Assembly (NCBI GenBank): GCA_044345155.1
Contig: JBIJBP010000001.1
Location: 58,800-122,799 of the forward strand
DNA length: 64,000 nucleotides
Direction: 5' to 3'
Origin: Prosthecobacter sp.
GTDB taxonomy: Bacteria > Verrucomicrobiota > Verrucomicrobiia > Verrucomicrobiales > Verrucomicrobiaceae
Shown here: piece after piece, positions 9,845 through 64,000 of the stretch
Layout of the letters: every line of letters begins with the position of its first letter
Numbering within the stretch: the stretch's first letter is position 1
The notes under the pieces: generated by a model
Told to the model about the DNA's origin: nothing
Seen by the model: the letters and a program-made list of their open reading frames with translations, nothing else
Databases searched by the model: none
Translations under genes and position numbers: made by a program

Positions 9845-9906
9845 GAATGCGAGGAAGTGAGGGCTCCTGTTCTAACGCCACAAAATGCCGGTCCTTAGTT
9901 TTTGCG

Positions 9907-27000: not shown

Positions 27001-30000
27001 CGAATGATGTTGTCGGCATTGAACTCCATGGAGAATCCGGTTCCGCTTCCCATGGCGAGGGTCATGCCGCCGCCATAGTTGTAAGTCGTGGTGCTGGCCT
27101 GGTTCGTGAGGGCGAAGTTGGCCGTGGTGTTGACCGCACGGATCGTGCCGCCCATCATGTCAATGAAGGTATTGTCACTGGCCGTGGTGGTGCTGTTGGT
27201 CCAGGGGGATGCATTGGCAAACTGCCAGACACCATTGACCATGGCAAAGCCGCGCATGGTGTTGGTGCCGGTGGTGATCAGGGTGCCCGGACCGGTCTTG
27301 AAGCCGTAGTCCAGTTCCGTTCCCTGGGTGAAGGCACCGTTCATGGTGAAGGTGTTGCCGGCAGTGATGTCAATGCCACCGCTGGTGTTGGTGTTGCCGT
27401 TGTTGTTGAAGACGGCACCACGGTTGGTGCTGCCGGTGAAATTGATGCGCGTCGTGCCGCCCATGTAGCGGGTGTTGGTGCCAGCACCACCAAGGAGCTG
27501 ATCGCCGCCATAGCTGAACTGGCTGGTGGTGGCAGGATCTCCCAGGGCGAGCTGATTGTTCACCTGCAGGACACCATCCGCCACAAAGAGGCCAATGACG
27601 GAATTTTGCCCGTTCAGAATCATCGTGCCGAGGCCGCGCTTCATCAGTGAGTTGCCACCATCAATCACCGAGGAGGCATCCTGGGTCAGGGTCAGGCCGC
27701 CAGCGATGTCGAAGTAACCGTTGCTGCCATGGACGTGGTAGTTGCGGGAGGTGGTGAAGGAGTTTTCCCAGACAGCAATACCGCCATTCACCATGTTGAT
27801 CAGGCTGGTCTGGCCCCAGTCGCTGTCCTGGTTGACGCCAATCAGACCGCCCGCAAGGGTGGTAGAACCGGTGTAGGTGTTGACACCGTTGAAGAACAGG
27901 GTGCCGAGGCCGCCTTTGACGAAGTGATTGCCAGAACCGCCGACGCCATCGGTGATGCCTCCGTCGATCCAGACCATGCCGGCGTTGTTGACGTCACCAC
28001 CGGTCTGATCGGTGCCGATGTTGAAGGTGCGGACGACTCCGGTTGAGCCCGGTGCCAGGGCAAGCGTGCCGCCCAGACGCACATCATAAGCAATGTTCTC
28101 CATCTGCAGCGTACTATCCGCGGTGAAGACCATGTTGTTGCTGATGGTCTGCGGCACAATCGCACGGTTTTGAGCGCTCGCGGAGTCCACACGGAAGGAG
28201 CCACCCGCGAGAGTGATGTCTCCGGTGCCGGCCAGGGCGTCACGGGCGCTCAAGCGCACGGAAACACCGGGGTTGAAAACAGTGCCGCCCGTATGAGCCT
28301 GGAGGACGTCAAACTGAACAACACCACCGCTGTTGTTCACCGTCTGGTCGGCACGGCTTGATTCACCGGTCATGGAGATGCCGGTGATGATCGAGTTGCC
28401 ACCCGCCAAGGGAACCGCCACGCGGAAGGTGCCCTGTTGGGTGCCGAGGAGGTATCGGTTGCCGGAAGCCGGAGCAAGATCGCCCGTGAAGATGCCGGTG
28501 TAACCCAGGGCAGCACCAAGGTAAACATCCCCTCCCCAGTTGGTGGCGAGGGCGGCGAGATCAATGTCCTGGCTGAAGCCCACGGCCCCCAGACCGAGAC
28601 CACCCGCCCAGGGAGCGGTGGTGTTGATGGCAAAGGACGGAAGTGCGGTCATCGGATCTCCCACATACAGCATGCCGATGCCGGAGATGCCGCCACGGTC
28701 AGAGTTGATGGTGAGCTGGCCGGAGCTGAGGTTGTTGCTGCTTGCCAGGGTGATGGCTGCGCCCGGATTCAGGGTGATGGCACCCGTGCCGAAGGGGGCC
28801 GAACCGGTATTGAGGCTGGTCATGCTGCCGGCATAGCTGGTGATGGCACCGCTGTAGCCTGAGGAATCCCCTGTGACGATGAGCCTCTCGTTGTAGAACT
28901 TGTCAAACCTGCCCGTGCCTGCAATGCCACCATTGAGCTGAATAGGATGCTGAATGGAGAACTGAGCGTCATTGTTCAGCGTGAGTGTTCCATAAACGGT
29001 GGTGATGTTGCCACCTGCTTGGTTTTGCACACGGACCTGCGTGGGAGCGGTGCTGCCGACCCGAGGCTCAACGACAAGGTTGTTGAAGCCGGAGGCGCCG
29101 ACGTTGACGTTGCCGATACGGGCGTCATCTTTGATGATCAGGTTGTTCTGATAACGGGAGCTGCCGGACTGGAGGTAAACGGAACCACCCCAGATGTTCA
29201 CATCCTTGGCCGTCGCATCCGTGGGCAGGCCTGCGGCGCCCTGGCTGAGCCGGGTTTCACCTGCGTTGAGGTTAAGCGGGCCGGAGAAGGTGTTCTGGCC
29301 GGTCAGGGAGAGGACGCCGTCGCCAAAGCGGGTGATGCCAGCGGAGCCGGTCAGCACGCCGCTCAGAGTGATGATACCGGCAGTGCCGCCTGTCGTCGCC
29401 GCATAGATCATGCCTTCCTGGGAGCCGAAACCGAAGTTGGTGGTGTGGGTGATGCCATTGTTGGCGGTGTGCGCCAGGAAAAGGCCCGCACCCTGGCCGA
29501 CGCCGGCGGCGGCGCCCAGCGTCATTGCGCTGGAGGCGTTGAAGGTGTTGGTGTTGGCGGTGGATCGAATGCGCAGGGCCTGCACGCTGGCACCGGCGCC
29601 GGTGTAGGCCGTGGCGTCGAAATTGACGAGGGAACCTGTGGTGGCCGCTGTAAAGGTGTTGTTCAGGGTGAAGGCGGCACTGGTGAGACCGTGGGTGGAG
29701 TCATAGGTCGCGAACAACGGCGTGCCGGCATCATTCAAGTTCGCGCCACCCCAGATCGCGATGTTGGCCCCGATCATGCCATTGTTCACCGTGGGTGCGC
29801 CGGTGCTGATGATCAGCTTCTGGGTGCCTGCGGAGGTGCCCAGGGTCGTCGCCGTGTTGGCGATGTTACGAATGTTCAGGGTGCCGTTGCCGGTGCGGGT
29901 GAGACTGTTCAGCGTCAGGGTTGTCAGCCTGCTCGCGGTGGTGCCGTCCGTGTCCACGCTGATTGTGTTGCCACCGGCATAGGTGAGTTGATCGATGGCC

Positions 30001-32539: not shown

Positions 32540-33856
32540 TCAGGCAAGACTGAGCGCTCCACCTTCACACAACTCCACCTTTCCGAAGGTCTTCAGCTCA
32601 TGCCCCATCGCCCCGGCAACGGACATCCAAAGCCGGTTGTGAGCAGCCTTGTCGAATTTCAGGCTTCGACCCATCTTGAATCCAAACCCGCCGCCGATCA
32701 TCACATACGGAATGTTGTCCAGGGTGTGCGTGTTCCCCTTCCCCAGCTCGTTGGTCCAGACCAGCAGGGTGTTGTCGAGCATGGAGCCGTCCCCTGCGGG
32801 CTCGGGGGTTTCGCTCAGCCGCTTCGCCAGATAAGCGAACTCACCGGCGAACCAGGTGTTGATCTTTTTCAGCTTCTCGTAGCTGTCCTTCTTGTCGTCA
32901 GGATCATGGGAAAGGCTGTGATGCCCCTCCTCCACCCCCAGCCAGCGCATCTGGGCCATGCCGACGCTGCGCATGTACTGAAGCGTGGCCACGCGGGCCA
33001 TGTCGTTGGACAGGGAGTTCACCAGCAGGTCGATCTGGATACGGCTGATCTGTGGCGTATTGTCGTTCACCAGCTCGATGCTCGGATCCACGGCAGGCAC
33101 GGGATGAATGAGGCTGCCTGCCTTGTCAGCCTCGGCCAGGTCCTGCTCCAGGCTGCGGACCAGGGTCATGTGCTGGTCCAGAAGAGCCTTGTCACGGGAG
33201 CTGAGCTTTGAAGAAACACGCTTCAGGTCCTCGCGCACGTCATCGAGGATGCTGACGAGGCTCTCCTTGTCCTTCATTCTTCCATAGACCTTCTTCAGCA
33301 CCTGGTGCGGGTCGTCGATGGGAGCCACGGGCTGGTTTGCCCCGGCGTAGCTCATGCGCGTCCATGGGTCGGCGCGATCGGGCACGGCAACGCCAAACTC
33401 CAGGGAGCCAAAACGGGTCTTCGTCTCCTTGCGGGACTGGAGGAAGTTCTTGATCTCCTGGTCGATGGAAATATTGCTGGCCCAGCCCGCCGGATTTCCA
33501 CCGCCGCCCATGATGTTGCCCTTCATGAGCTCGTCACAGGTCAGCAGGCAGCTCATGCCGCGCATGTGGCTGTCACCGTCGCCGCGGACCTTGTTGGCGA
33601 TGCCGTGCAGGATGAGCATCCGCTTCCTGAAGGGCTCAAGCGGCTGGAGGATCGACTTGAAGCTGAACTCTCCACCCTCCTGATCAGGCCAGAACTCGTC
33701 CGGCAGGGTGCCGTTGGGCGAGAACATGATGACCAGCCGCTGGCGCTTCTGGGGAGCAGGCGCCCCGGTGATGCTGGGCAGGCCGGAAAGAAACGGGAGG
33801 GCTGCGGCGGAGATGCCGAGGTCACGCAGGAACTGGCGGCGGTCGAGATGCTTCAT
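32540..33856 (-). CDS. DUF1552-family protein with a twin-arginine signal
   Basis: 438 aa. MKHLDRRQFLRDLGISAAALPFLSG is a Tat-type signal. The GHHSLSHDPDDK (HxxSHH-like) motif and the overall layout match the PVC DUF1552 family. Confidence 0.88.
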   Translation of the reverse strand: MKHLDRRQFLRDLGISAAALPFLSGLPSITGAPAPQKRQRLVIMFSPNGTLPDEFWPDQEGGEFSFKSILQPLEPFRKRMLILHGIANKVRGDGDSHMRGMSCLLTCDELMKGNIMGGGGNPAGWASNISIDQEIKNFLQSRKETKTRFGSLEFGVAVPDRADPWTRMSYAGANQPVAPIDDPHQVLKKVYGRMKDKESLVSILDDVREDLKRVSSKLSSRDKALLDQHMTLVRSLEQDLAEADKAGSLIHPVPAVDPSIELVNDNTPQISRIQIDLLVNSLSNDMARVATLQYMRSVGMAQMRWLGVEEGHHSLSHDPDDKKDSYEKLKKINTWFAGEFAYLAKRLSETPEPAGDGSMLDNTLLVWTNELGKGNTHTLDNIPYVMIGGGFGFKMGRSLKFDKAAHNRLWMSVAGAMGHELKTFGKVELCEGGALSLA

Positions 33857-35774: not shown

Positions 35775-38099
35775 TTACTTCACCTCCGCGGCCACAAGGG
35801 CGATCTCGGTCATCAGCCTCTGGATGCTGCACTGGTTCGCCGCAAAGTCCTTCTGGAGCGTGTCGAGCGTGGTGGCTCCGTAGGCGGCCGGCTCCTGCTT
35901 GACCAGATGGTGGAACAGGTGGCGGATGAAGGCGCGGTGCCCGCCGGGGTTGCCGGAGACGTAGTTCACGATGTCGCGCGGACCGCTGAGCCGAACCAGA
36001 TGGCCCTCGTGCGTGGTGAACTCGCTCACCGGATTGACAGGCTTGTTGTTATCCTTGGTGCGCCAGCGGCCCACGGCGTCGAAGTTCTCCAGGCTGAAGC
36101 CGAGCGGATTGATCATGCTGTGGCAGCTCATGCAGGCGCCGCTGCGGGTGAGCTCCGTGATCTTTTCACGCATGGTGAGCTTCGGATTGAAGTGGCTGTC
36201 CTCGAACACCACCGCCTTCTTCGGCGGCTTGAGCGACATGCCGACGATGTTGCGGGTGAGGAAGACGCCGCGATGCACCGGCGAGGACTGCCTTGAATAG
36301 GCCAGCGAGGCAAGGAGGTAGGGATGCGTGACCACGCCGGCGCGCTGCTTCGGGTCGAAGGCGACGCGCTGGAAGGCCTCGCCGGCGACCGGCCTGCCGT
36401 AAAACCTGCCGAGGCGCTCGTTGAGCAGGAGATAGTCCGCCTGCAGGAGCTCGCGGTAGTCTGACTTTCCGTTCCACACGACCTCGTCGATGAACTGGAA
36501 CAGCGACTCGCGCAGGTCGGCGAGCAGTTCCGGCGTGAAGTCGGGGAAGGCCTTGGGGTCCTTGCTGGTGACCTCGGCGCGCTCAAGTTCCAGCCAGTGG
36601 TGGAAGAAGCCGTGCAGCTTGGCCTTCGCGCGGGCGTCGGCCAGCATTCGGGAGGCCTCGGCGCGAACCTGGTCGCGGGTGCGCAACCTTCCCTGGGCAG
36701 CCGCCTGCAGGAGCTTCCTGTCAGGAATGGAGTCCCAAAGCGTCAGCGCCAGGCTGGCAGCCCTGTCATAATCATCCAACGGCCCGGCTCCGGGCAGGCC
36801 GGGATAGAGAAACTGCGGTGACTTGAGCGCCAGCATGACCACGCGTTTCACCGCCGTCTCCGGCGTCTTCGCGGCCTTGAACTGCGGCTCGATCAGCAGC
36901 CTTTTCAAATCATCACCAGGGGTGCGGCGGAAGGCGGCCTCCACAAAGGCCTCGGCGAAACTGCGCAGCTTCTCCGTGCGGTCCGCAGCCCCGGGCTTGG
37001 TCTGGGCGAGTTCGTCGATGTTGGCCACCACATGCTCGGCGGTTGCGATGGCGGCGTCGGTCACCGCCTGATCCCAGTCCTTGGAGATCGTCGTGCCACG
37101 CGGATAACCGCCGCTGCTGTCATCGGCGGGAAAGCTGTTGCTGACGATCATCATCTCGCGCGGCCGGTCCGTGCGCAGGGCGCCGGCGGGGATGATCTCC
37201 CTGACTCCATGAGGCGGCTTCCACCACAGCTCGATGGAGGATGACTTCTCCTTGAACTTGAAGTGCTCCAGCACCAGCCGGTAGGCGCGTCCGCCGACGA
37301 GATAAATCGTCCTCTTCTCCTCGCGAACCTCCGGCCCGGCGCTCACCCAGCCATCAATCAGCGCATCACCGTCGGAGGTGTCGTTGATCCACAGGCGGAA
37401 GCCGTTTTCCGATTTCACGGCAAACTCGTAAAGGCCTGTCTCGCGGGCGACGACGGAGCCGTCGAAGCGGTTCTGAAACTGCTCGGCCTCCAGCGTCTCC
37501 TTCACCGGGCTGTCCGGCCCCCATTGGAAGTCGACGACGGGCTCCACCTTTTCGATGGTTTTGTTAGGCCGCTTGGCCTTGATGCCCTTTTCCGGCGTGG
37601 TGTCCACGGGCTTCTCTCCAGGCTTGGGCAGCTCAACGCCGCGGTAGGTGGCCTTCAACCCCTGCTCGGTCCCGACGGGACGGTCGAAGCCGGGCCCCAT
37701 GCGGAAGCGTCCGACCACGTCCATGACGCTGTTGCGGAACTTCTCCGTCGTGAGGCGCGCAAGGTCCCTGGTCGGAGGGTTGCTGCGAGCCTGGGCCTCG
37801 GGCGAATAGAAGGCGTCGTGGATGTACTCGGCGATGAGCCTGGAATCCCCGGGCGTGCTCTTGTCCGGGTCATCCTCCGGCATCGTGCGGTCGATCTGGC
37901 GCGCCAGGGCCTCAACGTTCTTCTCGCCGGTCAGCGCCTCGTCGTATTCATCCTCCACGCCCTGGCCGCGGTCGCCATGGCAGTCGGCGCAGAGCTTTTG
38001 GTACAGCGGTTTTCCGGGATGCTCGGCGGGAGCGGCCGACGCGGGCTCCAGAATCAGGAGCACTCCCAGGAACAGGAATTGGGAACGGATCGAAAACAT
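35775..38099 (-). CDS. PVC-type multidomain cytochrome-domain protein (PSCyt + PA14-like + DUF1595/DUF1592/DUF1588/DUF1585 family)
   Basis: 774 aa with a signal peptide. CADCHGDRG is a haem c motif. The PA14-like block is FDGSVVARETGLYEFAVKSENGFRLWIND...YRLVLEHFKFKEKSSSIELWWKPPHG. The C-terminus ACMSCHSMINPLGFSLENFDAVGRWR is typical of the DUF1588/1585 end of these proteins. Confidence 0.88.
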   Translation of the reverse strand: MFSIRSQFLFLGVLLILEPASAAPAEHPGKPLYQKLCADCHGDRGQGVEDEYDEALTGEKNVEALARQIDRTMPEDDPDKSTPGDSRLIAEYIHDAFYSPEAQARSNPPTRDLARLTTEKFRNSVMDVVGRFRMGPGFDRPVGTEQGLKATYRGVELPKPGEKPVDTTPEKGIKAKRPNKTIEKVEPVVDFQWGPDSPVKETLEAEQFQNRFDGSVVARETGLYEFAVKSENGFRLWINDTSDGDALIDGWVSAGPEVREEKRTIYLVGGRAYRLVLEHFKFKEKSSSIELWWKPPHGVREIIPAGALRTDRPREMMIVSNSFPADDSSGGYPRGTTISKDWDQAVTDAAIATAEHVVANIDELAQTKPGAADRTEKLRSFAEAFVEAAFRRTPGDDLKRLLIEPQFKAAKTPETAVKRVVMLALKSPQFLYPGLPGAGPLDDYDRAASLALTLWDSIPDRKLLQAAAQGRLRTRDQVRAEASRMLADARAKAKLHGFFHHWLELERAEVTSKDPKAFPDFTPELLADLRESLFQFIDEVVWNGKSDYRELLQADYLLLNERLGRFYGRPVAGEAFQRVAFDPKQRAGVVTHPYLLASLAYSRQSSPVHRGVFLTRNIVGMSLKPPKKAVVFEDSHFNPKLTMREKITELTRSGACMSCHSMINPLGFSLENFDAVGRWRTKDNNKPVNPVSEFTTHEGHLVRLSGPRDIVNYVSGNPGGHRAFIRHLFHHLVKQEPAAYGATTLDTLQKDFAANQCSIQRLMTEIALVAAEVK

Positions 38100-53832: not shown

Positions 53833-54324
53833 TCAGCGGCGCACACGCAGCACACGGCCGGTACGCGGATCGTAGATGCCGGTGGTGCCGGGCGGCACAT
53901 AACCGCCCTGATAGACGTTGTTGTAAGTGGGGGCTGGCCCCAGGCTCTGGCCCGGCACCACCGGGATCTGCTGGTTGCCGATGTGGACCTCCTCGATCAC
54001 ACCTCCCGTGCTGCGATAGACGCCGGACTCGGAGCTGCGCCCCAGGATGTCCTGCTCACTGCGATGATACATCACCTGGGCATCAGGCATGGCATCACGC
54101 TGCTGACGTGCCTGGCGAAGTCGGTAGGCGCTGGAGGTTTCCCCCGGCTGGATGCGGGTCGCGGCATCCTGGGCCGAGATGCCTGAAGCACTGCCCGGCT
54201 GTGGGTAGCTGTAAGAGCCGGGTTTTACCCGGGACGGTTTTCTGGAAGAGACGGCTCCATCCTCGGGTGGCACCACGCAGGCCTGAAGCAGGAGGCAGAG
54301 GACGGGAAAAAGGCGGGCCTTCAT
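53833..54324 (-). CDS. Hypothetical lipoprotein
   Basis: The ATG at 54324 gives MKARLFPVLCLLLQAC, a lipobox (LLQA|C). The remainder is G/P/S/Y-rich with no recognisable domain. It lies 54 nt downstream of mglA on the same strand. Confidence 0.6.
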   Translation of the reverse strand: MKARLFPVLCLLLQACVVPPEDGAVSSRKPSRVKPGSYSYPQPGSASGISAQDAATRIQPGETSSAYRLRQARQQRDAMPDAQVMYHRSEQDILGRSSESGVYRSTGGVIEEVHIGNQQIPVVPGQSLGPAPTYNNVYQGGYVPPGTTGIYDPRTGRVLRVRR

Positions 54325-54378
54325 GCCTGAATCATGGCAGAACACCGGAGGCCTGGGAAGCCTTCTTTCCAGGCCTGA

Positions 54379-55011
54379 TCAGGCAGCGATCACATCACGC
54401 AGGACTTCGCGATGCTGCTCACGAGCCTCCTGGAAGCGGGCGACGACGGCCTGCGTGATGGCGTTCAGCGTGGCCAGCACGTTGCGGCCGTTCTTGGCGT
54501 CCGCCTCAAAGCTGAGGTGCGGCACCGGCCGGTTGTTGAGCAGGAATTCGAGGTATTCCACCGGAGCAGAATTCGGCAGGTCACGCTTGTTGTATTGAAG
54601 CACGAGCGGCAGCCGGTCCAGACTGGAGCCGTTCAGGCGGAGGTTGGCCTCCAGGGCCTGAAAAGCATGCACGTTGTCGCGCTGGCGGTCCATCTGACTG
54701 TCGGCGACAAACACAACCCCATCCGCCTGCCTCAGCACAAGCTGCAGCGTGGCGTTGTAGGTGACCTGGCCGGGGACAGTGTAGAGATGAAAGCTGGTGC
54801 GGTAGCCTGGGATGGCCTGGCTTTCCACAGCGAGGAAGTCAAAGAACAGCGTCCGGTCCTGTGCGGTGGAAAGGCTGACGAGGTCACCCCTGCCCTGCGG
54901 GTCAAGCCGTGCGTGGATCTGACGCAGGTTCGTGGTCTTTCCGCTCAGCGGAGTCCCGCAGTAAACGATTTTAAAGCGCACAGTGCGCTCCTGGGCGTCG
55001 ATGGCCGGCAT
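54379..55011 (-). CDS. mglA: MglA-family Ras-like small GTPase
   Basis: 210 aa. RFKIVYCGTPLSGKTTNLRQI (P-loop), LVSLSTAQDRTLFFDFL (MglA switch I with the intrinsic Arg), FHLYTVPGQVTYNA (switch II Gln), VVFVADSQ, and LVLQYNKRDLP (G4). From memory it aligns along its length with Myxococcus MglA. Confidence 0.9.
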   Translation of the reverse strand: MPAIDAQERTVRFKIVYCGTPLSGKTTNLRQIHARLDPQGRGDLVSLSTAQDRTLFFDFLAVESQAIPGYRTSFHLYTVPGQVTYNATLQLVLRQADGVVFVADSQMDRQRDNVHAFQALEANLRLNGSSLDRLPLVLQYNKRDLPNSAPVEYLEFLLNNRPVPHLSFEADAKNGRNVLATLNAITQAVVARFQEAREQHREVLRDVIAA

Positions 55012-55012
55012 G

Positions 55013-57679
55013 TCAGGAAACCATGCGGGAAAGCTCCCTGGCGATCAAGGTAATCTTATCCCTCAGGCCAAGGGTGGGTTCGGCATCGTGCAGGACACCC
55101 AGAATGGCCCGGTCTGGAAAGCAGAAGGTCATCAGTCGGTCGCCGGAGTTCATCGTGAAGGTCTCGGCACCATCGATGCCGATCAGCGGGGCGAGTGTTC
55201 TAAGGTGCTGGGCGAGCTGGGTCGCCTGCTTTTGGAACTCACGGGCCTGCGGCTTGTGGGCGCCGACATGCGAGATGGCCCTGCCGTCATGCAGGCAGAC
55301 GCAGGCGGCGATGCCCGGCAGCCTGCAAGTAAGCTCCACCACCTTCTGCGGTTCCAGGTCTGAGTCGGTGTCCAGCAGGGCGCGAAGCACGATCTGATCA
55401 GGATCCGCGTCATGGGCCTGCACCCCGACATTCGAAGAACTGCCGTTGGCAGCTGCACGGGGCAGCGGAGGAGGCGAGGGTTTCCGAGGACGCGGCGGCT
55501 CTTCCTCCACCGGCACCGGCGGCAGCACTTCATCAAATTTCGGCGCGATGAAGGGACGGGTGGCAGGTGACGCCACCCAGCCCCGATCAGGTTCAGCAGG
55601 CTCGTCCAGAAGGGGCTTTACTGTAGGTAGCTCGATGAGCGGCGCCTCCTTAGCCAGAGGGAAAACCGGAGACTCACCCACTGCGCTGGTGACCGCCGCT
55701 TCGTTCCAGCTTGCAGTGGAGCTGGAGACGCGGCCCAGCAGTTGATCACTGCCAAATCCATCGCCGCAGGATCTTCCCTCCTCGGCAGCCTGGGACGTGT
55801 TTCCGGAGGCTGGCGTCAACAGGGACGGAACCGGGACCGCCATCGGAACTTCCTGCTGCATCGGGCTGCCGGCCATGAAGTCCTGGAGCTTGGAAGCCGG
55901 AGGCGTTCCCATACCAGCGCCAAAGGGAGATGCGGCTGATGCCGCAGGAACCGAGAACGGATCCTTGGCGGCGGGTGCAAACAGCGGCTTCGAGGCAGTG
56001 GAGGGCACCAGAAAGGGCGAGGGTGACTCGTTTTCAACTGCCTGCGGGGAAAACACGGGGCCTGGTGCCGCAGGACTCAGCGGCATCGACGGCTGCGGCG
56101 GCGTGAAAGATGTTGGAGGCGCGGAGGGCTCGACCCTCATCGCTCCACCCGTAGGAGTCCCGAAGGTAGGCGCAGGCTTGGGAGCGGCATTGAGGGAACC
56201 GGTTCCGAGGTTGGTCAGGCTCGGCAGGGAGGGCGGGGCGTTGTTGCCGGCAAGGGCCTGCTGAAGAACCCCTGGATCAACCCTTAGCTGAAAGTCGCGT
56301 TTGGCCGTGTTCAATACGTTGCGGAAACCCACGTCCGTGATGCCGTCCACGAGCAGGCCAAGCTCAGCCAGCGGGTTTGGTGAAAGCGCCAGATCCCTCA
56401 CCACCTGGGACGGCAGAGCCGTGGTGATCCAGCCAGGCACCACCATGGGATCAAAACCAAGCTCGGCGACACTGTATCCCTTCAACAAACCTGCCATGGC
56501 GACTCTGACCATTCCGCCTCCCATGGCTAGGGAAGGAGCAGAAGCGGCCGTTCCAAAAGTTGGCAGGCCAGGGTCAGCGGCAGGACCAGGACCGGCGGAG
56601 GAAACGGCAGAAGCAGGCGAGGCTTCCATCCCGGAAGGGTCGACGGGAATCGCTTTGCCGCCAAACACAGCGGCAAAAGGAGAACCTGCCGTCGGGGGCT
56701 GTGGATTTGGAGTTTCCTGTCTGGAAGACGAAGCCGGGACAAAAGGCGAGGCGGGCACAGGCGCCTGCTGAAAAGGCGACGCAGATTGCTGCACGGAACG
56801 CTGAGGCTGGACGATTGCAGGCTCCACCGGAGGGGCGGCAAAAGGAGACGCCGGCGGCGCGGCCTGCATCGGTGGATTTGTTCCTGCCCCCACTGCAAAT
56901 GGGCTCATGGGAAAAGCCGCCGCCGTTCCATGCACCATGCCGGGCAGAGCCACGTCAGGCGAAACCATCTGACCGACATCCGCAAGCGCTGGAGGAGGCC
57001 CCTGTCTTTTCGGAGGCAGCAGTGTTCCTGTTCCAGTCGGAGCATCGGCGGATGCAAACGGCAGGGCGGCAGGGGTGGCTGCAGAGGCTTCAGAAGGCAT
57101 GGGCGCCATCATGAACGGAGAACCGTTGACCAAAGACTGGGGTGCCGCTGCCTGCAGCTCGGCAACGCCGCCTCTGGAGGCAGCGATCAGATGGGGAAGC
57201 TTTGAAGCCGGAAGAGGCACCAATCGCTGATCCTGGGGTGACACTGGCGTTTGAAACAGCGCCGGACACACCCGGTAGATTTCAAAAACCGGCACGGCGG
57301 CACGACCGCTGCGCAAAGCCTCATCGATCACCTGGCCGGAAACCGCCACGGGATGGTCCGGAGGCAAGGCGCCCGTCCTGGCGAGTTCAGGAGGCAGCTG
57401 CGGCATCACATCACCCACGGTCAACGGAACAGTTGCCGGGCTGGCGGACGACACCGAAAAGGGAGAACCTGACACAGGGCTGGCCACCGCCTGCTCTCCG
57501 GGAGAAGCCTTGAAAAGCGGTCCCCCAAACGGACTGACGGCGTTAAGCGGAAGGGCGGCTTGCATGATGGCGGTAGGCAGGACAGCCGGGCTCGTGCCAG
57601 CGGGATCCACCACAGCGCTGCCAGCCTGCTGAGCGGCCTCGTGGCTGTTTGGAAACATGGTGCGGAACGAAAAGCTCAT
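55013..57679 (-). CDS. 888-aa protein: Pro/Ala/Ser-rich, SPF-motif-bearing N-terminal region plus a C-terminal Roadblock/LC7 (MglB-like) domain
   Basis: The last ~125 aa are DQIVLRALLDTDSDLEPQKVVELTCRLPGIAACVCLHDGRAISHVGAH...GIDGAETFTMNSGDRLMTFCFPDRAILGVLHDAEPTLGLRDKITLIARELSRMVS. This follows the Roadblock/LC7 alpha-beta-alpha pattern of MglB. Its stop is separated from the mglA ATG by 1 nt (TGAcATG). Upstream are about 750 aa of low-complexity P/A/S sequence with ten exact SPF tripeptides. Confidence 0.72.
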   Translation of the reverse strand: MSFSFRTMFPNSHEAAQQAGSAVVDPAGTSPAVLPTAIMQAALPLNAVSPFGGPLFKASPGEQAVASPVSGSPFSVSSASPATVPLTVGDVMPQLPPELARTGALPPDHPVAVSGQVIDEALRSGRAAVPVFEIYRVCPALFQTPVSPQDQRLVPLPASKLPHLIAASRGGVAELQAAAPQSLVNGSPFMMAPMPSEASAATPAALPFASADAPTGTGTLLPPKRQGPPPALADVGQMVSPDVALPGMVHGTAAAFPMSPFAVGAGTNPPMQAAPPASPFAAPPVEPAIVQPQRSVQQSASPFQQAPVPASPFVPASSSRQETPNPQPPTAGSPFAAVFGGKAIPVDPSGMEASPASAVSSAGPGPAADPGLPTFGTAASAPSLAMGGGMVRVAMAGLLKGYSVAELGFDPMVVPGWITTALPSQVVRDLALSPNPLAELGLLVDGITDVGFRNVLNTAKRDFQLRVDPGVLQQALAGNNAPPSLPSLTNLGTGSLNAAPKPAPTFGTPTGGAMRVEPSAPPTSFTPPQPSMPLSPAAPGPVFSPQAVENESPSPFLVPSTASKPLFAPAAKDPFSVPAASAASPFGAGMGTPPASKLQDFMAGSPMQQEVPMAVPVPSLLTPASGNTSQAAEEGRSCGDGFGSDQLLGRVSSSTASWNEAAVTSAVGESPVFPLAKEAPLIELPTVKPLLDEPAEPDRGWVASPATRPFIAPKFDEVLPPVPVEEEPPRPRKPSPPPLPRAAANGSSSNVGVQAHDADPDQIVLRALLDTDSDLEPQKVVELTCRLPGIAACVCLHDGRAISHVGAHKPQAREFQKQATQLAQHLRTLAPLIGIDGAETFTMNSGDRLMTFCFPDRAILGVLHDAEPTLGLRDKITLIARELSRMVS

Positions 57680-57887: not shown

Positions 57888-60503
57888 TCAGGGCACCAGA
57901 CTGGCATCCCAAGTCCACAGCGGTGTGACAGCGGCAGCCTCCACCCAGCCGCGCAGGTTTTCCGGGGATCCGGGGATTTCGACATAGAGCCAGGGGCCGC
58001 GTGTTTCCAGCGTGCGCACCTGGCTGCCAGGCGGCAGGGAGATCACGGAGCCGCTGGTCACTGTGGCACCAGTATAGGAGTTCACATCAGGCAGGGTGAC
58101 GATGCTGATGTCCTTTACCCGGTCGGGCCCCAGGGGGCGCAAAGCGGCAAAGGTGGACGCCGGGATGATGATGACCAGCCCGATGACACTGGCCACAACC
58201 GGCCAGGAAGACCTGCGGCCGTCGCCGGCAAACACACGCCAGGCCAGGGAGAGGAAAATGAGCCAGACACCAGAGGCCGCGAGGATGAGCCATTCGTTGG
58301 TGCTCAGGTAAAAGCTGGCCAGACGCAGCGGAGATGATTCTCCAAAGCTCAGGTAGCGCGTCCTTTCATGGATGTGGCGAAGGTTCTGCTTCAGTTCGGC
58401 ATTCCTTCCATCGAGAAGCTGGGCGCGCTGATACCAAAGCGCTGCCCGCCCCATGTCACCCTGCCGGTAACGGGCGTGGCCGATGATCTGAAACACCTCC
58501 GCACTGAGGTGCGGTGGCTTCTTTTTCGTCAGCGACTCGGCAAGGTACTGGGCACGGGTGAAGTTGCCCTTCTCGATTTCGGCGACGGCTTGCTGATAGA
58601 CCTCGTCCGGACTTGCTGCGGTCGCCTTCGGAGCCTCGGCAGCCGGCATCGAACCATTCACGAGCAGCAGCGATGTCAGCAGCAAGAGGCTCAGCCGGGA
58701 GAGCGTCTGCCGGAAAAGGGCGGCCAGGGTGCCCAGCATTTCGCGGCGCTCGGCATGCGGCAGGGCAGGCCCGTGGGTTACGGAAAAGTTGGTTGCCTGA
58801 TAGCGGTCAAGAATGTCCTTCAAAGGCCCGGGAGGCACCGGACGACCTGACTGCGCCACCTGGATAAACTGGGCAGCGCCTCTTAGAAACTCCTGATCAT
58901 CCGCACGGGACGCATGAGATTCAAAGGCTTCCCAGGCAACCCGAAGTTCACCGGCACGGCCGGCAAGACGGGATTCCCGGCGGCGGCGCACCACCGCCAG
59001 GGCACAGGCGAACGCAAAGAGCGCCACGGGGGCTCCCTGCAGCGTCCAGAAGCTGCCGCTGCGCAGAAGCAGCGTGCCTGTTGGCGCGAGCCAGCGGGAT
59101 CTGGCGGGAGGCCGGACCAGAATGTCAGTGATGTCTGCCTGAGGATCTGCCACAGGGGGTGGGGCGACTGGCGTTTCGGAGACAGCCTGGGCGCCAGCGG
59201 CACCGGCCGACTCTGCGGCGGCCTTCACCGGAGCGGGCTTCATGTTCAAGGGAATGGGCTCGGTGCGCAGCGTCACGTATTTTTTCTGGGAGGGGCTGAA
59301 GTAGTTCAGCTCAAAGGCGGGCACACTGGCATGAACCGCCTCGGGGACGATCACCTGCGTGTAACCGATCTTGCGCTCAACCGTCGGCGTCTGGTTCTGA
59401 TCCATCGGCCCCTCGATGACAAAGCGCTTGGCAGGGTAGATCTTCCAGCCTCCGGCCGAGACCAGGGCGGGTGTGTTCAGCGCATCAAAGTTTCCAGCAC
59501 CGGCAACCACGAGGTCGACCGAAACGGGGTCGCCGACCGTCAGATCCGTGGGTGAGGCCGAGGCGTTCATCTGGAATTCACCGACGGCTCCGCTGAAGCT
59601 GGCGGGCCTGCCTTCAGACGGAAGCGGCAGCACCTTCAGCGTCACCTGCTGGCTCTTGACCTCCAGCTTTCTCGGCTCGGACATACCTGGGAAGAAACCT
59701 GGCGGGAAGTTCTGCCCGAAGCCAGGAGGGAAAGCTCCGCGCTGCTGACCTTCCATCGGCACCTCGACGAGCAGTTCAAGGTTGGCGGGGCCGACCTTCA
59801 GTTCTCCGGTACGGAGCGAGGAAAGCGTGCTGCGGAAGGTCAGCACATAGTAACCGATGCCGTCGATGACTGTGCTCGACTGCTCATTGGTCTGAGGGAA
59901 GCGGGCGATGGCGAAGTCGCTTTTTTCCATCTCAATCAGCCCCAGCCTGCGAAGCTGCACCTGACGGGGCACATAAAGGCTGACGTTCACCGGCACGACC
60001 TCGCCCTGATAGATCTCCTTCTTGCCCAGCTCAATTTGAAGGATCGGCCGGTTGGCGTCATCCTGGGAAGGATCCTGGTCATTTTTTGGGAAGGCCCCGC
60101 CGCCATTTTCGACGGTGAGCTTGACCTCGTTGGTGGTCAGGTTCTGGCCGTCAACAACCACCGTCTGGGGCGGAATGACAAACTCTCCTGGCTCGGTCGC
60201 CGTGATGCCCCAGGAAAGCTGGATGGAGACGCTCTGACGTCCGTTGATGATCTGGATCTGCTGGGAGGTGCTGACCCCGCTGGTCTGGCCGATCTGCAGA
60301 GGAAAGCGCAGGTTCGGCACGCTGTTCACCTTGCCGTCCTGGACGGTGATGACGTAGTTGATCACCTGGTTGGGGCGGGCGGTGGAGGGCTGCACATAGG
60401 CGCGGATCGTGGCGCCCTGCGCCAGGGAGGAAACGAACAGCACCAGCAGCACGGCCAGCCGGCCGGGAAGCGGGATCGGGAAATGGAAGTCTGCGAAATT
60501 CAT
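57888..60503 (-). CDS. BatD-like oxygen-tolerance protein fused to a BatE-like TPR + SH3 C-terminal module
   Basis: 871 aa. The N-terminal half fits the BatD pattern (IRAYVQPSTARPNQVINYVITVQDG...ATEPGEFVIPPQTVVVDGQNLTTNEVKLTV, repeated Ig-like blocks). TM helices and a TPR segment follow (IEKGNFTRAQYLAESL...GHARYRQGDMGRAALWYQRAQLLD). The end is SH3b-like (GSQVRTLETRGPWLYVEIPGSPENLRGWV). Confidence 0.78.
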   Translation of the reverse strand: MNFADFHFPIPLPGRLAVLLVLFVSSLAQGATIRAYVQPSTARPNQVINYVITVQDGKVNSVPNLRFPLQIGQTSGVSTSQQIQIINGRQSVSIQLSWGITATEPGEFVIPPQTVVVDGQNLTTNEVKLTVENGGGAFPKNDQDPSQDDANRPILQIELGKKEIYQGEVVPVNVSLYVPRQVQLRRLGLIEMEKSDFAIARFPQTNEQSSTVIDGIGYYVLTFRSTLSSLRTGELKVGPANLELLVEVPMEGQQRGAFPPGFGQNFPPGFFPGMSEPRKLEVKSQQVTLKVLPLPSEGRPASFSGAVGEFQMNASASPTDLTVGDPVSVDLVVAGAGNFDALNTPALVSAGGWKIYPAKRFVIEGPMDQNQTPTVERKIGYTQVIVPEAVHASVPAFELNYFSPSQKKYVTLRTEPIPLNMKPAPVKAAAESAGAAGAQAVSETPVAPPPVADPQADITDILVRPPARSRWLAPTGTLLLRSGSFWTLQGAPVALFAFACALAVVRRRRESRLAGRAGELRVAWEAFESHASRADDQEFLRGAAQFIQVAQSGRPVPPGPLKDILDRYQATNFSVTHGPALPHAERREMLGTLAALFRQTLSRLSLLLLTSLLLVNGSMPAAEAPKATAASPDEVYQQAVAEIEKGNFTRAQYLAESLTKKKPPHLSAEVFQIIGHARYRQGDMGRAALWYQRAQLLDGRNAELKQNLRHIHERTRYLSFGESSPLRLASFYLSTNEWLILAASGVWLIFLSLAWRVFAGDGRRSSWPVVASVIGLVIIIPASTFAALRPLGPDRVKDISIVTLPDVNSYTGATVTSGSVISLPPGSQVRTLETRGPWLYVEIPGSPENLRGWVEAAAVTPLWTWDASLVP

Positions 60504-60524
60504 GAATGCTCCGGGGTTTGACGC

Positions 60525-62504
60525 CTACCAGTCCTTGCCCCGCACGGGTTCATCACGGGGCCGGACGATCATGGCCTTCTTCTGGTCATCGGCATAGGTG
60601 CGGAGGAAGGAGCGGGCCTCATTGCGGCTGAAACCGGTGGCATCGTTCTGCTGGTTCTCAGCCATCTCGGCCTCACGGCGTTCACGGGCTGCACGAGCTT
60701 CGGGTGTCTCGTCACGACCACCCTCGCCAGCCTGGAGCTGCCCTTCCTTGTCGTGCTCCTTGCCCTCGCCTTCCCCCTCCTCCTCGCCGTCCTTTTTGCC
60801 AAGGCTTTCCTTGCGGGACTTGTCCTCCTCACCTTCGCCCTCGCCTTCCTCATCGCCGTTGTCGCCCTCCTGCTCGTCACCTTCCTCACCCTTCTGGCCT
60901 TTTTCGCCCTTCTGGCCCTTCTGACCTTTTTTCTTGTCGCCCTTGTTCCCTTTGCCGCCCTGCTGTTGCTGCTGGTTCATCTGCTGCTGCAGATCATCAA
61001 GGCGCTTCTGGACGAAGTCACGGTTCTCACGGACCTCCTTGTTGTCGGGATCAATCGCCAGCGAGGCGTCAAAATGCCTCACGCTGTCACGCCAGGCTTT
61101 CAGCGTGAACTTGGGCTGCTTCGCCAGCGCCTTGTCTCCCTGATCATAGAGGCTGTGAGCCAGGCCGCGATGAGCCTGATTCTGAACCTTGTCATCAGGG
61201 CTTTCCAGCGCCTGGCTGTACCCGGCGACCGCCCTGTCATAGTCCTTGAGCTGAAAGGCCGAGGCGGCCATGCCATAGGCGAAAAGAGGCTTTTGTTGGG
61301 CGCCCGAAGACTGCTTGAGCAATTCCTCGTAACGCTTGACGGCATGATCGAACTCGCCGCGTTTGTAGGCCTCGTGGGCCTCGATGGATTCGGCGTTTTT
61401 CTTTGAACCCAGCACGGATCCGAGGAAGCCTGAATCGGCGGCTCCGGCATCGGGCACAAGCAGCAGGGAGGCCAGCAGGGCGAAGACGGACGGGGTCACG
61501 GGTGTTTTCATGCGGGCGGCGGGTCGGATGATCCAGGCGGCGAAAAGTAACAGCACTCCAATAGACAGCGGCCAGTAAAAACGCTCAATCGGCTTCACGA
61601 TTTCACGGGCGGCGTTGGTCTGGGCCTGAAGGCTGGCAACCAGGCTGCGGACCACGTCGGCCGCCAGCCCCTGCGAACCCAGCCTCAGATAGCGACCGCG
61701 GGTGACGGCGGCGATCTCCTGCAGCGGCTGCGGCTCCAGCCGGGACTTCACGACGTTGCCTTCGCGGTCACGCACAAAATCGCCCGAGCGGTCTGGATCC
61801 GGGTCGGGAATCAGGGCGCCACCCTCGGTGCCCACTCCGACGGTGAGCACCAGGATGTTCTTCTTGGCCGCCTGCTGCGCATAAGCGCTGATCTCGCTGT
61901 CTGGCTCGCCGCCATCACTGAACAGGATCAGGCCATGATTCCTGGCAGGGCTCTTTTCAAAGGTCTCGATGGCGAGCTTCAATGCACGTCCAAGCTCACT
62001 GCCGCCACGGGGGACCGATGTGAAATCAATCGACTGAATGGCCTCCACCACGGCGTCATGATCGGTCGTAAGCGGTGCCTGGAGGTAGGCGTTGCCGGCG
62101 AAGGCGATCAGCCCGACACGGTCATCCTTGAGGGACAGCATCAGGTCCTGGGCGGCAAGCTTGGCGCGCGTCAGGCGGTCGGGAACGACATCGTTGGCGA
62201 GCATGGAGCGCGAGCTGTCGATGGCGATGATGACATTCCGCCCCGACTCCTGCTGCACCACCTTATCCTCATCCCACCAGGGCCTGGCCAGGGCGATGAT
62301 GAAGCAGGCGAGGGCCAGGATCTGGAAGGCGAAGATGAGCCAGGAGCGGCCGCTGGAGACGCCGGAAACCAGGGCGTCGCGCAACCGTGGCGCGGCGAAG
62401 GCCGCCTGAACCTTCCGTGCACGCCAGTCCGCCCAGGCCTTGAAGCCTGCAAGGACAGGCAGGGCAAGAAGCCAGTAGAGGATCTTGGGTGCGAGGAAGG
62501 ACAT
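60525..62504 (-). CDS. BatB-like VWA membrane protein fused to a BatC-like TPR region and a charged low-complexity tail
   Basis: 659 aa. Two N-terminal TM helices. VWA MIDAS is NVIIAIDSSRSM. TPR helices include HEAYKRGEFDHAVKRYEELL and FQLKDYDRAVAGYSQALE. The tail is QQQQQGGKGNKGDKKKGQKGQKGEKGQKGEEGDEQEGDNGDEEGEGEGEEDK. Confidence 0.85.
   Translation of the reverse strand: MSFLAPKILYWLLALPVLAGFKAWADWRARKVQAAFAAPRLRDALVSGVSSGRSWLIFAFQILALACFIIALARPWWDEDKVVQQESGRNVIIAIDSSRSMLANDVVPDRLTRAKLAAQDLMLSLKDDRVGLIAFAGNAYLQAPLTTDHDAVVEAIQSIDFTSVPRGGSELGRALKLAIETFEKSPARNHGLILFSDGGEPDSEISAYAQQAAKKNILVLTVGVGTEGGALIPDPDPDRSGDFVRDREGNVVKSRLEPQPLQEIAAVTRGRYLRLGSQGLAADVVRSLVASLQAQTNAAREIVKPIERFYWPLSIGVLLLFAAWIIRPAARMKTPVTPSVFALLASLLLVPDAGAADSGFLGSVLGSKKNAESIEAHEAYKRGEFDHAVKRYEELLKQSSGAQQKPLFAYGMAASAFQLKDYDRAVAGYSQALESPDDKVQNQAHRGLAHSLYDQGDKALAKQPKFTLKAWRDSVRHFDASLAIDPDNKEVRENRDFVQKRLDDLQQQMNQQQQQGGKGNKGDKKKGQKGQKGEKGQKGEEGDEQEGDNGDEEGEGEGEEDKSRKESLGKKDGEEEGEGEGKEHDKEGQLQAGEGGRDETPEARAARERREAEMAENQQNDATGFSRNEARSFLRTYADDQKKAMIVRPRDEPVRGKDW
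60890..60961 (-). repeat. Imperfect 9-bp (three-codon) tandem repeat inside the BatB/C-like gene
   Basis: Plus-strand units are CCCTTCTGG / CCTTTTTCG / CCCTTCTGG / CCCTTCTGA / CCTTTTTTC / TTGTCGCCC / TTGTTCCCT / TTGCCGCCC. On the coding strand they encode the (K-G-x)n stretch GGKGNKGDKKKGQKGQKGEKGQKG. Confidence 0.65.
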
Positions 62505-62505
62505 G

Positions 62506-63531
62506 TCAGGTGGCCACGGCCATCGGGGCCGCGTTCAGGAAGGTGAAGCGCAGGAGCAGGGCCAGCCCGAGCAGTGAAGCGGCGGCGGCCAGCGGATAGA
62601 AGAAGAGCTCCTCGGTCTCGGAGATGGTGCGCTTCTTGATCTCCTTCTTCTCAAGCTTGTCGATGGTCTCGAAGATGTCGGCAAGGGCGCTGAGGTCCTG
62701 AGCCATGTAAAATGACCCGCCGCCGATGTTCGCCACGGCCTGGAGGGTGGCTTCGTCAAACTCCTGGCGTCCACTGGTGATGACGCGGCCGTTGGGCAGT
62801 GGGATCATGTGAACCCCGGGCGTGCCGATGGCGATGGTGTAAATCTTGATGCCTAGGGTGGCTCCCAGCTTGGCGGCGTCCTGGGGGCTGAGCTTGCCGC
62901 TGTTGTTGGCGCCGTCGGTCAGCAGGATGATGACCTTGCTGGGCACGGTCTCCTTGTCGAGGCGGCGGGCGGCGGCGGCGAGTCCGGAGCCGATGGCCGT
63001 GCCGTCCTCCATGACGCCGGTCTGGACGCGTTCCAGGTTTGACTCCAGCCACTCGCGGTCGAGCGTCATCGGGCAGGGATAATACGGAGCGCCGGCAAAG
63101 GCCACGATGCCGATGCGGTCCGACTTGCGACCGCGGATGAAGTCACGCATCACGCGCTTCGCCGCCGTCAGCCGGTTCACCGGACTGCCACCGATGTAGA
63201 AGTCCTCGATGAGCATCGAGAGCGAAACATCGACGGTGAGGCAGATGGCGATGCCCTCAGTGTTCTCCTCGTCGTGCGAGATGACCTTCTGCGGCCTGGC
63301 GAGCGCGATGATGGCGCAGGCAAGGCTGAGGAGGACAAGCCCGAGGGTGAAGCCGCCACGGGCACTGCGGGTGCGGACGCCCATCTCACGCAGCACGAAG
63401 GCGGTGGAAAAGGCGATCGCAGGCGCCTTCCCGGTCCGCCCACGCCACCAGGCCATGACGGGCAGGAGAAGGAGCAGGAGGAGCCACTCGGGCCGGCCGA
63501 AGATCAGGCTGGGCAGGAAGGGGATGCTCAT
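62506..63531 (-). CDS. BatA-like VWA-domain membrane protein
   Basis: 341 aa. N-terminal TM helices (WLLLLLLLPVMAWW). VWA MIDAS is ICLTVDVSLSM. There is a C-terminal TM helix. Its stop lies 1 nt from the BatB/C start, and its start overlaps the DUF4381 stop (ATGA). Confidence 0.85.
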   Translation of the reverse strand: MSIPFLPSLIFGRPEWLLLLLLLPVMAWWRGRTGKAPAIAFSTAFVLREMGVRTRSARGGFTLGLVLLSLACAIIALARPQKVISHDEENTEGIAICLTVDVSLSMLIEDFYIGGSPVNRLTAAKRVMRDFIRGRKSDRIGIVAFAGAPYYPCPMTLDREWLESNLERVQTGVMEDGTAIGSGLAAAARRLDKETVPSKVIILLTDGANNSGKLSPQDAAKLGATLGIKIYTIAIGTPGVHMIPLPNGRVITSGRQEFDEATLQAVANIGGGSFYMAQDLSALADIFETIDKLEKKEIKKRTISETEELFFYPLAAAASLLGLALLLRFTFLNAAPMAVAT

Positions 63532-64000
63532 GAACGGTCCTCCTCAAGGTGCGAGATGGCCTTTTGCACGAGCGCTGCCGCCTGCTGCTGGTCCGCCGGC
63601 AAGGGGGCGAAGGCAAGCTGGTCCCAGAGCTCGGCCAGGGGGGCGTACCTTTGCAGCCGCGGCGAGGTCGCCGGCATGGCTCCGTGGATAAACAATTCGT
63701 TCGTCGTGCGGAACGGAGCGGGGATCTTGTAGCGGTCGTAAAAATAAATGCGCAGCGTCTCGGAGACGTCGGCGGCGGTCCTGGCGGGAGGCTGCTGCGA
63801 GGCTTTCGCCAGAATGTCACGCAGGCGGTTCATCGCGGCGGTGTAGGGTTTCTTCATGGGCGGCGGCGAGGTCCTCGCGGGACGCATCAGCAGCCAGAAG
63901 ACAAGCCCCAGCAGAATGATCACCAGGCCTCCAGCCGAGGCATAGACCCACCATTCAGGACCAGAGGTCACCAGGGCGGGGTCCGGCAGCTCAGGATGAG
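63528..64000 (-). CDS. DUF4381-family membrane protein, 5' end beyond the window
   Basis: The frame stays open to the window edge (...HPELPDPALVTSGPEWWVYASAGGLVIILLGLVFWLLMR). The proline-rich segment, W-W and single TM helix fit the DUF4381 proteins found upstream of batA in MoxR-DUF58-Bat operons. Confidence 0.7.
   Translation of the reverse strand, partial: HPELPDPALVTSGPEWWVYASAGGLVIILLGLVFWLLMRPARTSPPPMKKPYTAAMNRLRDILAKASQQPPARTAADVSETLRIYFYDRYKIPAPFRTTNELFIHGAMPATSPRLQRYAPLAELWDQLAFAPLPADQQQAAALVQKAISHLEEDRS

Follow-up and report, generated by a model that had tools for sequence, protein, structure and literature searches.

MglA and MglB form the best-understood polarity switch based on a bacterial small GTPase and, to our knowledge, have been studied almost only in the motile bacteria Myxococcus, Bdellovibrio, and Thermus. 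The locus described here comes from Prosthecobacter sp., and bacteria of this kind are non-motile and prosthecate. It lies in a stretch of 64,000 nucleotides (nt) of contig JBIJBP010000001.1, which is referred to as the window and within which all positions are counted. The locus consists of an mglA gene and, immediately upstream of it, a gene for an 888-residue protein with a C-terminal domain that is predicted to adopt the Roadblock/LC7 fold.

In Myxococcus, the MglB dimer binds one MglA asymmetrically and its protomers differ in role: one provides ~77% of the MglA interface together with an exchange-promoting C-terminal helix, and the other provides Asn37 and Arg98, which contribute to the GTPase-activating protein (GAP) activity of M. 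xanthus MglB (PMC11016934). MglC, a paralog of MglB, docks MglB via the RomR scaffold (PMC12719032). Group 1 MglA proteins are defined by an Arg next to the Thr of G2, a G3 sequence of TVPGQ, and a G4 sequence of [NT]KxD, and were not found in Verrucomicrobia in the survey by Wuichet and Sogaard-Andersen (2014, PMC4316618); multidomain MglB-like proteins have been reported only as fusions with receiver domains (PMC4316618). The evidence given below indicates that the Prosthecobacter locus is a real, lineage-specific variant of the MglA/MglB module, of which we infer the mechanism and the functions. No paper dealing with long Roadblock partners or with Prosthecobacter MglA was found, in agreement with a preliminary description of the locus, which took the long form to be undescribed. 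The two open reading frames (ORFs), which were confirmed in the ORF listing, are arranged as follows.

54379..55011, minus strand: mglA, a Group-1 MglA-type small GTPase of 210 aa (phmmer against the PDB, BLASTP, motif survey).
55013..57679, minus strand: gene for an 888-aa multidomain protein, in the order N-terminal motif, domain A, linker, domain B, linker, Roadblock domain (ORF, homologs).
55013-55015, minus strand: stop codon of the long gene.
55009..55016, minus strand: gene junction TGAcATG, in which the stop codon of the long gene and the ATG of mglA are separated by 1 nt (sequence).

The junction reads tccTGAcATGccg, and the tight coupling of the two genes that had been reported, with a spacing of 1 nt from stop codon to ATG, is thus verified. 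The G+C content of the region is the same as that of its surroundings. A promoter and terminator scan was uninformative, its counts not exceeding those in shuffled sequences.

The MglA GTPase and its P-loop proline

In phmmer searches against the PDB, the 210-aa product matches M. xanthus MglA over residues 4-200 (6h17/5ymx, E = 4e-51) and Thermus MglA (3t12, E = 2e-49), both matches lying within residues 3-200, with Arf-like proteins reaching only ~1e-4 or worse; by BLASTP, its identity to M. xanthus MglA is 46%. It carries the switch I sequence STAQDRTLFFDF, the switch II sequence YTVPGQ, and NKRD at G4, and its initial designation as an MglA-type GTPase is borne out. Both the G1 consensus (GxxxxGKT) and the G4 consensus ([NT]KxD) of Group 1 are present, as GTPLSGKT and NKRD. 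The Arg adjoining the G2 Thr, the Arg53-Thr54 feature of Group 1, is found in the sequence DRTLFFD, and DRT is invariant in all 78 MglAs that are encoded beside a long gene and present in 119 of the 120 best homologs. TVPGQ, instead of DxxGQ, occurs in the window MglA and in 120/120 of these homologs. The group is also marked by an MglB-family gene within four genes of mglA, and here a Roadblock-fold gene lies 1 nt upstream. By these sequence features, the 210-aa protein is a Group 1 MglA of the Myxococcus/Thermus type.

The P-loop departs from that of characterized Group 1 members. GTPLSGKT aligns over GPGLCGKT, replacing Pro20 by Thr and Gly21, within G1, by Pro, so that Pro stands at the position of Ras Gly12, as originally noted. 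Judged by its distribution, this Pro is clade-wide and not peculiar to one gene: it is present in 111 of the 120 best homologs, in 77 of the 78 MglAs found beside the long gene in genome loci, and in three distant coupled MglAs (GSPMSGKT, GTPVGGKT, and GTPMGGKT). A G21V mutation of MglA lowered hydrolysis (PMC3000849), and Bdellovibrio MglA, which has no MglB partner, has Ser21, an earlier survey having tied Ala or Ser at this position to the absence of MglB (PMC3983030). H-Ras G12P is the only non-transforming substitution of Gly12; it is resistant to GAP and keeps its intrinsic GTPase activity (PMC6662853). The preliminary description had suggested that Pro21 could change hydrolysis. Its presence in 77/78 coupled MglAs, together with the invariance of DRT and PGQ, which hold the equivalents of the catalytic residues Arg53 and Gln82, in both the coupled and the distant sets, speaks for retained hydrolysis and against a locked GTPase, because these motifs are conserved alongside Pro21 and Pro21 coexists with canonical MglB in relatives (see below), as would be expected if hydrolysis is still selected for. 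A Pro21 MglA with Roadblock partners runs counter to the published pattern, in which a residue other than Gly at position 21 accompanies the loss of MglB.

The long Roadblock protein and the composition of the operon

The 888-aa protein has no match in Pfam (cut-off E<=0.1) or NCBIfam. Its 176 homologs (full-length identity up to 79%) come from Prosthecobacter, Brevifollis, and other members of the Verrucomicrobiaceae and are hypothetical proteins with lengths of 800-1260 aa; the UniRef entry of one is named Roadblock/LAMTOR2 domain-containing. Conservation mapping delineates A (~81-173), B (~388-480), and C (~755-888) as conserved blocks and the linkers that separate them as poorly conserved. 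The order A-B-C is kept in full-length members (n = 152, median 937 aa), including distant ones, and hhalign detects no homology among the three blocks. The features of the protein are as follows.

57650..57679, minus strand: N-terminal motif MSFSFRTMFP (tabulation of the N termini of full-length members).
57152..57427, minus strand: domain A, residues ~85-176, small alpha/beta domain (conservation, AlphaFold2).
56519..57151, minus strand: linker 1, residues ~177-387, Pro/Ala/Ser-rich with repeated (A/G)SPF motifs (predicted local distance difference test score (pLDDT) 30-40, composition).
56240..56518, minus strand: domain B, residues ~388-480, small alpha/beta domain (conservation, AlphaFold2).
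55418..56239, minus strand: linker 2, residues ~481-754, Pro/Ala/Ser-rich with further SPF/DPF motifs (composition, conservation).
55016..55417, minus strand: domain C, residues 755-888, divergent Roadblock/LC7 domain (AlphaFold2, Foldseek, hhalign).
Secondary structure of domain C: extra helix 760-768, a1 777-785, b1-b2 790-805, a2 810-829, b3-b5 840-864, a3 870-887.

The N-terminal motif is conserved in the family as M[SG]FSFR[ST][LM]F, and the ATG at 57679 is therefore taken as the true start. An AlphaFold2 model of residues 76-482 has domains A (85-176) and B (388-480) folded with pLDDT of 85-92 (~90 for domain B) and the linker between them at 30-40. The core motif of domain A is FEIYRVCPALFQTPVSPQDxR..PLPAsKLP, and its identity to the query is 0.65-0.84 per 20-residue block; the core motifs of domain B are ELGFDP..VP.WI and DGITDVGFRN.L. 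Neither domain has a Pfam match or a significant Foldseek match in the PDB (best E = 2 for domain A). Linker 1, of about 214 residues, is predicted to be disordered and has a Pro/Ala/Ser fraction of 0.51; linker 2 is poorly conserved, varies in length from 83 to 511 aa across the family, and the Pro/Ala/Ser content of the linkers is 45-51%. The protein contains ten SPF motifs, as compared with 0.53 expected (maximum 4 in 2000 shuffles), and 113 homologs contain a median of 11 (range 4-20). The ~750 residues that precede the Roadblock domain had at first been described as probably disordered, which agrees with the properties of the linkers but not with those of residues ~85-176 and ~388-480. 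It may be mentioned that the disordered tail of M. xanthus MglB (PDB 6h5b_B, residues ~141-146) reads GSPFAE, which contains the same (A/G)SPF motif, perhaps by coincidence.

The proposal that the protein ends in a Roadblock/LC7 domain is supported by the predicted fold but not by sequence searches. Residues 757-888 have no match at E<=10 in Pfam, including Robl_LC7 (PF03259), none in NCBIfam, and none among PDB sequences, whether a single sequence (phmmer) or an 11-sequence profile is used. An AlphaFold2 model of residues 749-888 (pLDDT 84.2, predicted template modeling (TM) score 0.80) has the topology a-b-b-a-b-b-b-a, and its best 50 Foldseek matches in the PDB are all Roadblock/LC7 proteins (prob 1.00, TM up to 0.78). 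LAMTOR2 is the closest (1veu_B, 4.9e-6), and others include Streptomyces 3kye, M. xanthus MglB (6hjm/6izw/6h5b), and Thermus MglB (3t1r/1j3w), these four having TM values of 0.6-0.73, as well as Asgard Roadblock proteins. A Roadblock/LC7 fold for residues 755-888 is thus supported by modeling. Alignment with M. xanthus MglB gives hhalign E = 0.006-0.013 over 48 columns in register and a profile score of 10 bits, with a weak match to the MglB core (LAPLIG versus LAKLIG, PTLGL versus TSLGL); the values for M. xanthus MglC (7ct3) are E = 0.65 and 0.6 bits, which led to the rejection of domain C as an MglC ortholog. Domain C is marginally closer to MglB than to MglC. It should be noted that MglB is a single domain of about 129-179 aa (range from PMC4316618) and that the present protein has 888 aa and two further folded domains. 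Because the Pfam model, the size of MglB, and its contact residues all fail to fit, domain C is probably best filed neither as MglB nor as MglC and simply within the Roadblock fold class. In an exhaustive profile search, the domain C family had 492 representatives among 1.84 billion proteins, nearly always at the C terminus of long proteins. The top-scoring match of that search, P0241, was discarded as a repeat-driven false positive and not a relative; it is a Thr/Ser/Ile/Asn-rich protein of 5013 aa with tandem Ig-like repeats, giving 40 partial matches to only 35 profile positions.

A survey of mglA neighborhoods was conducted by scanning genomes with domain C. It gave at least 80 loci (L001-L080), all matches listed being from Verrucomicrobiaceae, and these together with three distant loci, from metagenomes or metagenome-assembled genomes, make up a set of 83. 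In L001, from Prosthecobacter sp. Bin_70R, the matched domain shares ~99% identity with that of the window. Directly downstream of the long gene, mglA is found in 78 of the 80 listed loci and also in the three distant ones, one of which has a third gene with a weak Robl_LC7 match. The flanking genes (the upstream Bat genes, the downstream lipoprotein-like ORF, and a methyltransferase) are common only to the three closest loci; because conservation of the flanks ends with the closest relatives, it is the operon itself that is conserved as a unit.

In 58 loci, mglA is directly followed by a gene for a protein of 118-170 aa, the profile of which is matched in 61 of the 83 loci, the three most distant among them. 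This profile scores 40.5 bits on M. xanthus MglB (hhalign Prob 89%, E = 2.3e-6, 103 columns), as opposed to 1.5 bits on MglC, and one member has been named roadblock/LC7 domain-containing protein by NCBI. The short protein is clearly MglB-like and represents the canonical MglB, and the usual operon consists of the gene for the long Roadblock protein, then mglA, and then the short mglB. Since most relatives, and the most distant ones, hold both, the long protein appears to be a second, divergent MglB-like Roadblock paralog that coexisted ancestrally with canonical MglB and is not the canonical GAP. The preliminary description had viewed it as simply an oversized MglB and the gene pair as the classical order with mglB upstream of mglA; neither view is supported, as the separate MglB-like gene follows mglA in 61/83 loci and the classical mglB is this short downstream gene, which is absent at this locus from the subclade to which the window belongs.

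An enlarged orthologous MglB, stimulating hydrolysis by MglA as M. xanthus MglB does, would account for the Roadblock fold with MglB among the top structural matches, the mglB-mglA gene order with its 1-nt junction, the lack of any other Roadblock gene in the 64-kb window, and the weak in-register match to the MglB core. Nevertheless, we consider it unlikely that the 888-aa protein is such a GAP, because the separate short protein encoded right after mglA in relatives is far more MglB-like (40.5 versus 10 bits), because the equivalents of Ala64/Gly68 and Arg98 are not conserved, and because there is no match to the Robl_LC7 model in Pfam.

The subclade of the window comprises L001-L017 and L080. 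Profile searches over 8 kb to each side detected no short mglB in these loci, and neither a short mglB nor any other Roadblock gene was found in the whole 64-kb window. The short gene of an intermediate group (L018-L025 and L072) has a reduced length of ~118-156 aa. A stepwise loss of the short mglB in the lineage of the window is the parsimonious interpretation, which we infer from the three genes of the distant outgroups. The gap between the long gene and mglA, in approximate values, is -1 to +6 nt in 17 of the 18 subclade loci and 14-110 nt in the other groups. The short MglBs (for example at L056 4368-4766 and L020 9090-9446) all end in (S)LxDALHAxPAW, or in ...AP in the reduced group, a motif that may be the counterpart of the C-terminal helix of M. 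xanthus MglB, which binds MglA allosterically.

The reduction of short MglB in the intermediate group and its absence from the window's subclade might also be seen as signs of a decaying module, in which two remaining genes have little function in a lineage that is losing the system. The loci L026 and L027, of two close relatives, point in the same direction, in having neither mglA nor the A-B region of the long gene. Such decay is very improbable, as the MglAs of the subclade are 82-100% identical with invariant catalytic motifs, and the long genes keep their ORFs intact, at 880-1090 aa, and their domains strongly conserved, from which purifying selection on both genes is deduced. L026 and L027 are syntenic with L009, having the same upstream gene as L009 (at 97% identity) and panB downstream. 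They encode a form of 356-365 aa (7326-8423 in L026) that consists of the N-terminal motif, which is kept in L026, an SPF-rich linker, and the Roadblock domain, without A and B; this form appears to be a deletion derivative of the long gene.

Possible roles of the long protein

We favor, at a probability that we judge to be about even, a Verrucomicrobiaceae-specific MglA switch in which the long protein acts as a tethered Roadblock scaffold or platform that docks MglA. The Roadblock domain would dimerize with itself or, in relatives, possibly with the short MglB, and the dimer would form a platform for MglA, by analogy to the asymmetric docking of MglA on the MglB dimer. Domains A and B and the multivalent SPF linkers would anchor or concentrate this platform at a cellular site or at other partners. 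In the lineage of the window, the long protein would be the only candidate regulator of MglA that is encoded at the locus, and GTP hydrolysis could proceed through the Roadblock domain, through intrinsic activity as in Ras G12P, or through both.

Several observations weigh against this proposal. Domains A and B match no known fold, which leaves the architecture as the argument for a scaffold, and domain C resembles MglB only marginally in sequence (hhalign Prob 3-7%). The positions equivalent to Ala64 and Gly68 of M. xanthus MglB, which are required for MglA binding, are variable Gln/Thr positions in the domain C family, by a weak hhalign register. At the equivalent of Arg98, also in a weak alignment, only 4 of 19 subclade members have Arg, and the position varies elsewhere; the idea that the subclade regained an MglB-like Arg98 after the loss of short MglB was rejected for the same reason. 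The module also seems to be dispensable in some lineages, given that L026 and L027 lost mglA and the A-B region. Finally, a search for a relocated short MglB gave 11 matches, none of them from subclade genomes, by a shared-word method with which absence is not proven.

The lack of conservation of the MglA-contact residues of MglB would also be expected if the Roadblock domain binds not MglA but the short MglB or another polarity factor, and recruits it as an MglC-like adaptor to a site that is defined by the scaffold. Most relatives have two Roadblock proteins per MglA module, which parallels the presence of MglB and MglC in M. xanthus (PMC12719032). The long Pro-rich scaffold also recalls the Pro-rich linker of RomR. 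In the lineage of the window, such an adaptor would have a relocated MglB as its target or else persist as a remnant that is partly redundant. We doubt that this is its role, since domain C has no sequence likeness to MglC (0.6 bits, E = 0.65) and the long gene stays coupled to mglA, and strongly conserved, in the very subclade whose loci have no short mglB; because coupling and conservation persist there, MglB as the only client is hard to explain.

Domains A and B are more strongly conserved than most of the protein and have no assigned function, and the long protein could alternatively be an effector, in which case MglA-GTP binds it through A, B, or the Roadblock domain and switches on the assembly of a structure for which the SPF linkers recruit components. 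Known effectors of MglA, such as SgmX and AglZ, which are named in PMC12719032, are large scaffolds encoded elsewhere. They are not encoded beside mglA (PMC4316618), however, and Roadblock domains in GTPase systems serve as platforms for regulators, and we regard the effector model as improbable.

The proposed platform also has a more far-reaching version, which must be viewed as rather doubtful, in which the long protein is a self-organizing polarity hub that unites roles divided among MglB, MglC, and RomR and clusters or condenses at a cell site by means of its two domains, as new binding domains, and about ten multivalent SPF motifs in FG-like disordered linkers. If this were the case, MglA, which is naturally G12P-like, would be captured and regulated by the fused, divergent Roadblock dimer, and the hub would have replaced canonical MglB fully in the lineage of the window and would control the placement of a polar structure.

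Surroundings of the locus and comparison with known systems

Upstream of the long gene, at a distance of 208 nt, is a Bat-type (aerotolerance-like) operon (57888-63971, minus strand) with DUF4381, BatA-VWA, BatA-VWA-TPR, and BatD-TPR proteins. An ORF of 170 aa (53833-54345, minus strand) begins 33 nt downstream of mglA and has a lipoprotein-like signal (LLLQAC), a low-complexity body, and no Pfam match. It is present only in L001-L003 among the listed loci and, although it occupies the position of the short mglB of relatives, is unrelated to short MglB. A functional tie of the MglA module to the Bat operon, the 170-aa ORF, or the methyltransferase was rejected because these neighbors are common only to the three closest loci. 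Domain scans of the proteins of the window found no pilus, gliding, Frz, or Rom genes. The suggested role of the module in positioning the prostheca or surface organelles accordingly finds no link at this locus, with no pilus, gliding, or Rom genes in the window.

Elsewhere in the window, a single ORF of 6656 aa (12030-32000, minus strand) has PATR (passenger-associated transport) repeats as its sole Pfam matches; it resembles a giant surface protein of the autotransporter type, and no domain is assigned over most of its length. It is preceded immediately by a tyrosine recombinase gene (9847-10860, plus strand; Phage_integrase and a SAM-like N-terminal domain). Planctomycete-type domains are found on the minus strand at 9272-9844 (PSCyt1), 32540-33856 (DUF1552/HXXSHH), and 35775-38099 (PSD4/PSCyt3/PSD5 with PA14), which fits a genome of the Planctomycetes-Verrucomicrobia-Chlamydiae group.

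The value of the locus is in the leads that it gives to specialists and not in a demonstrated new mechanism. It brings to the MglA field a large, conserved, and unannotated protein with a cryptic Roadblock domain and two domains without known fold, and these two conserved domains, together with the repeated SPF motif, are offered for characterization. A subclade in which canonical MglB appears to have been lost stepwise is a third difference from the studied MglA systems, in addition to Pro21 and the long protein. The locus constitutes a natural experiment, both in the tethering of a Roadblock platform and in the possible transfer of the GAP role to a divergent paralog.

Comparison with described systems places the locus closest to the MglA/MglB pairs of M. 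xanthus and T. thermophilus (6izw, 6h5b, and 3t12), with which it shares a Group-1 MglA with an intrinsic Arg finger and a Roadblock-fold partner encoded immediately upstream; relatives of the window also encode a short, clearly MglB-like protein. It differs in having Thr20 and Pro21 in MglA and a partner of 888 aa with two extra domains, disordered linkers, and a sequence that is barely MglB-like. The short mglB of relatives, moreover, is downstream and not upstream of mglA and is absent at the locus of the window, and no Frz, Rom, or motility genes are near the window's mglA. Bdellovibrio bacteriovorus MglA (PMC3983030) is similar in being a Group-1 MglA with a natural substitution at Gly21, but there the residue is Ser, and in the survey Ala or Ser, in the absence of MglB, whereas Pro21 occurs here with Roadblock partners and, in relatives, mostly with canonical MglB. 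H-Ras G12P (PDB 1jah; PMC6662853) has Pro at the equivalent P-loop position, but it is an engineered protein that needs an Arg finger in trans; as MglA has its own Arg, the consequences may differ.

With respect to the long protein, MglC (PDB 7ct3) likewise adds to an MglA module a second protein of the Roadblock fold that is highly divergent, and it is proposed to be a docking adaptor and not the main GAP. It is, however, a single domain of 120 aa encoded away from mglA, whereas here a scaffold of ~750 aa is fused to a Roadblock domain of unlike sequence (0.6 bits) beside mglA. RomR, which is compared here in function only, is also a modular scaffold that positions regulators of MglA and has a long disordered linker rich in Pro; the 888-aa protein has no detected homology to it and neither a receiver domain nor a Glu-rich tail, and RomR is not known to be fused with a Roadblock domain. 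The fusions of Response_reg and Roadblock domains (PMC4316618) likewise combine several domains, and the Robl_LC7 model of Pfam misses their MglB-like region at the C terminus, but their N-terminal part is a receiver domain and not a pair of unmatched domains with SPF-rich linkers. In Ragulator/LAMTOR, which contains the best structural match of domain C, LAMTOR2 (1veu_B), Roadblock dimers that are tethered by a scaffold act as platforms for Rag GTPases; that system is eukaryotic, is unrelated in sequence, and serves another GTPase family.

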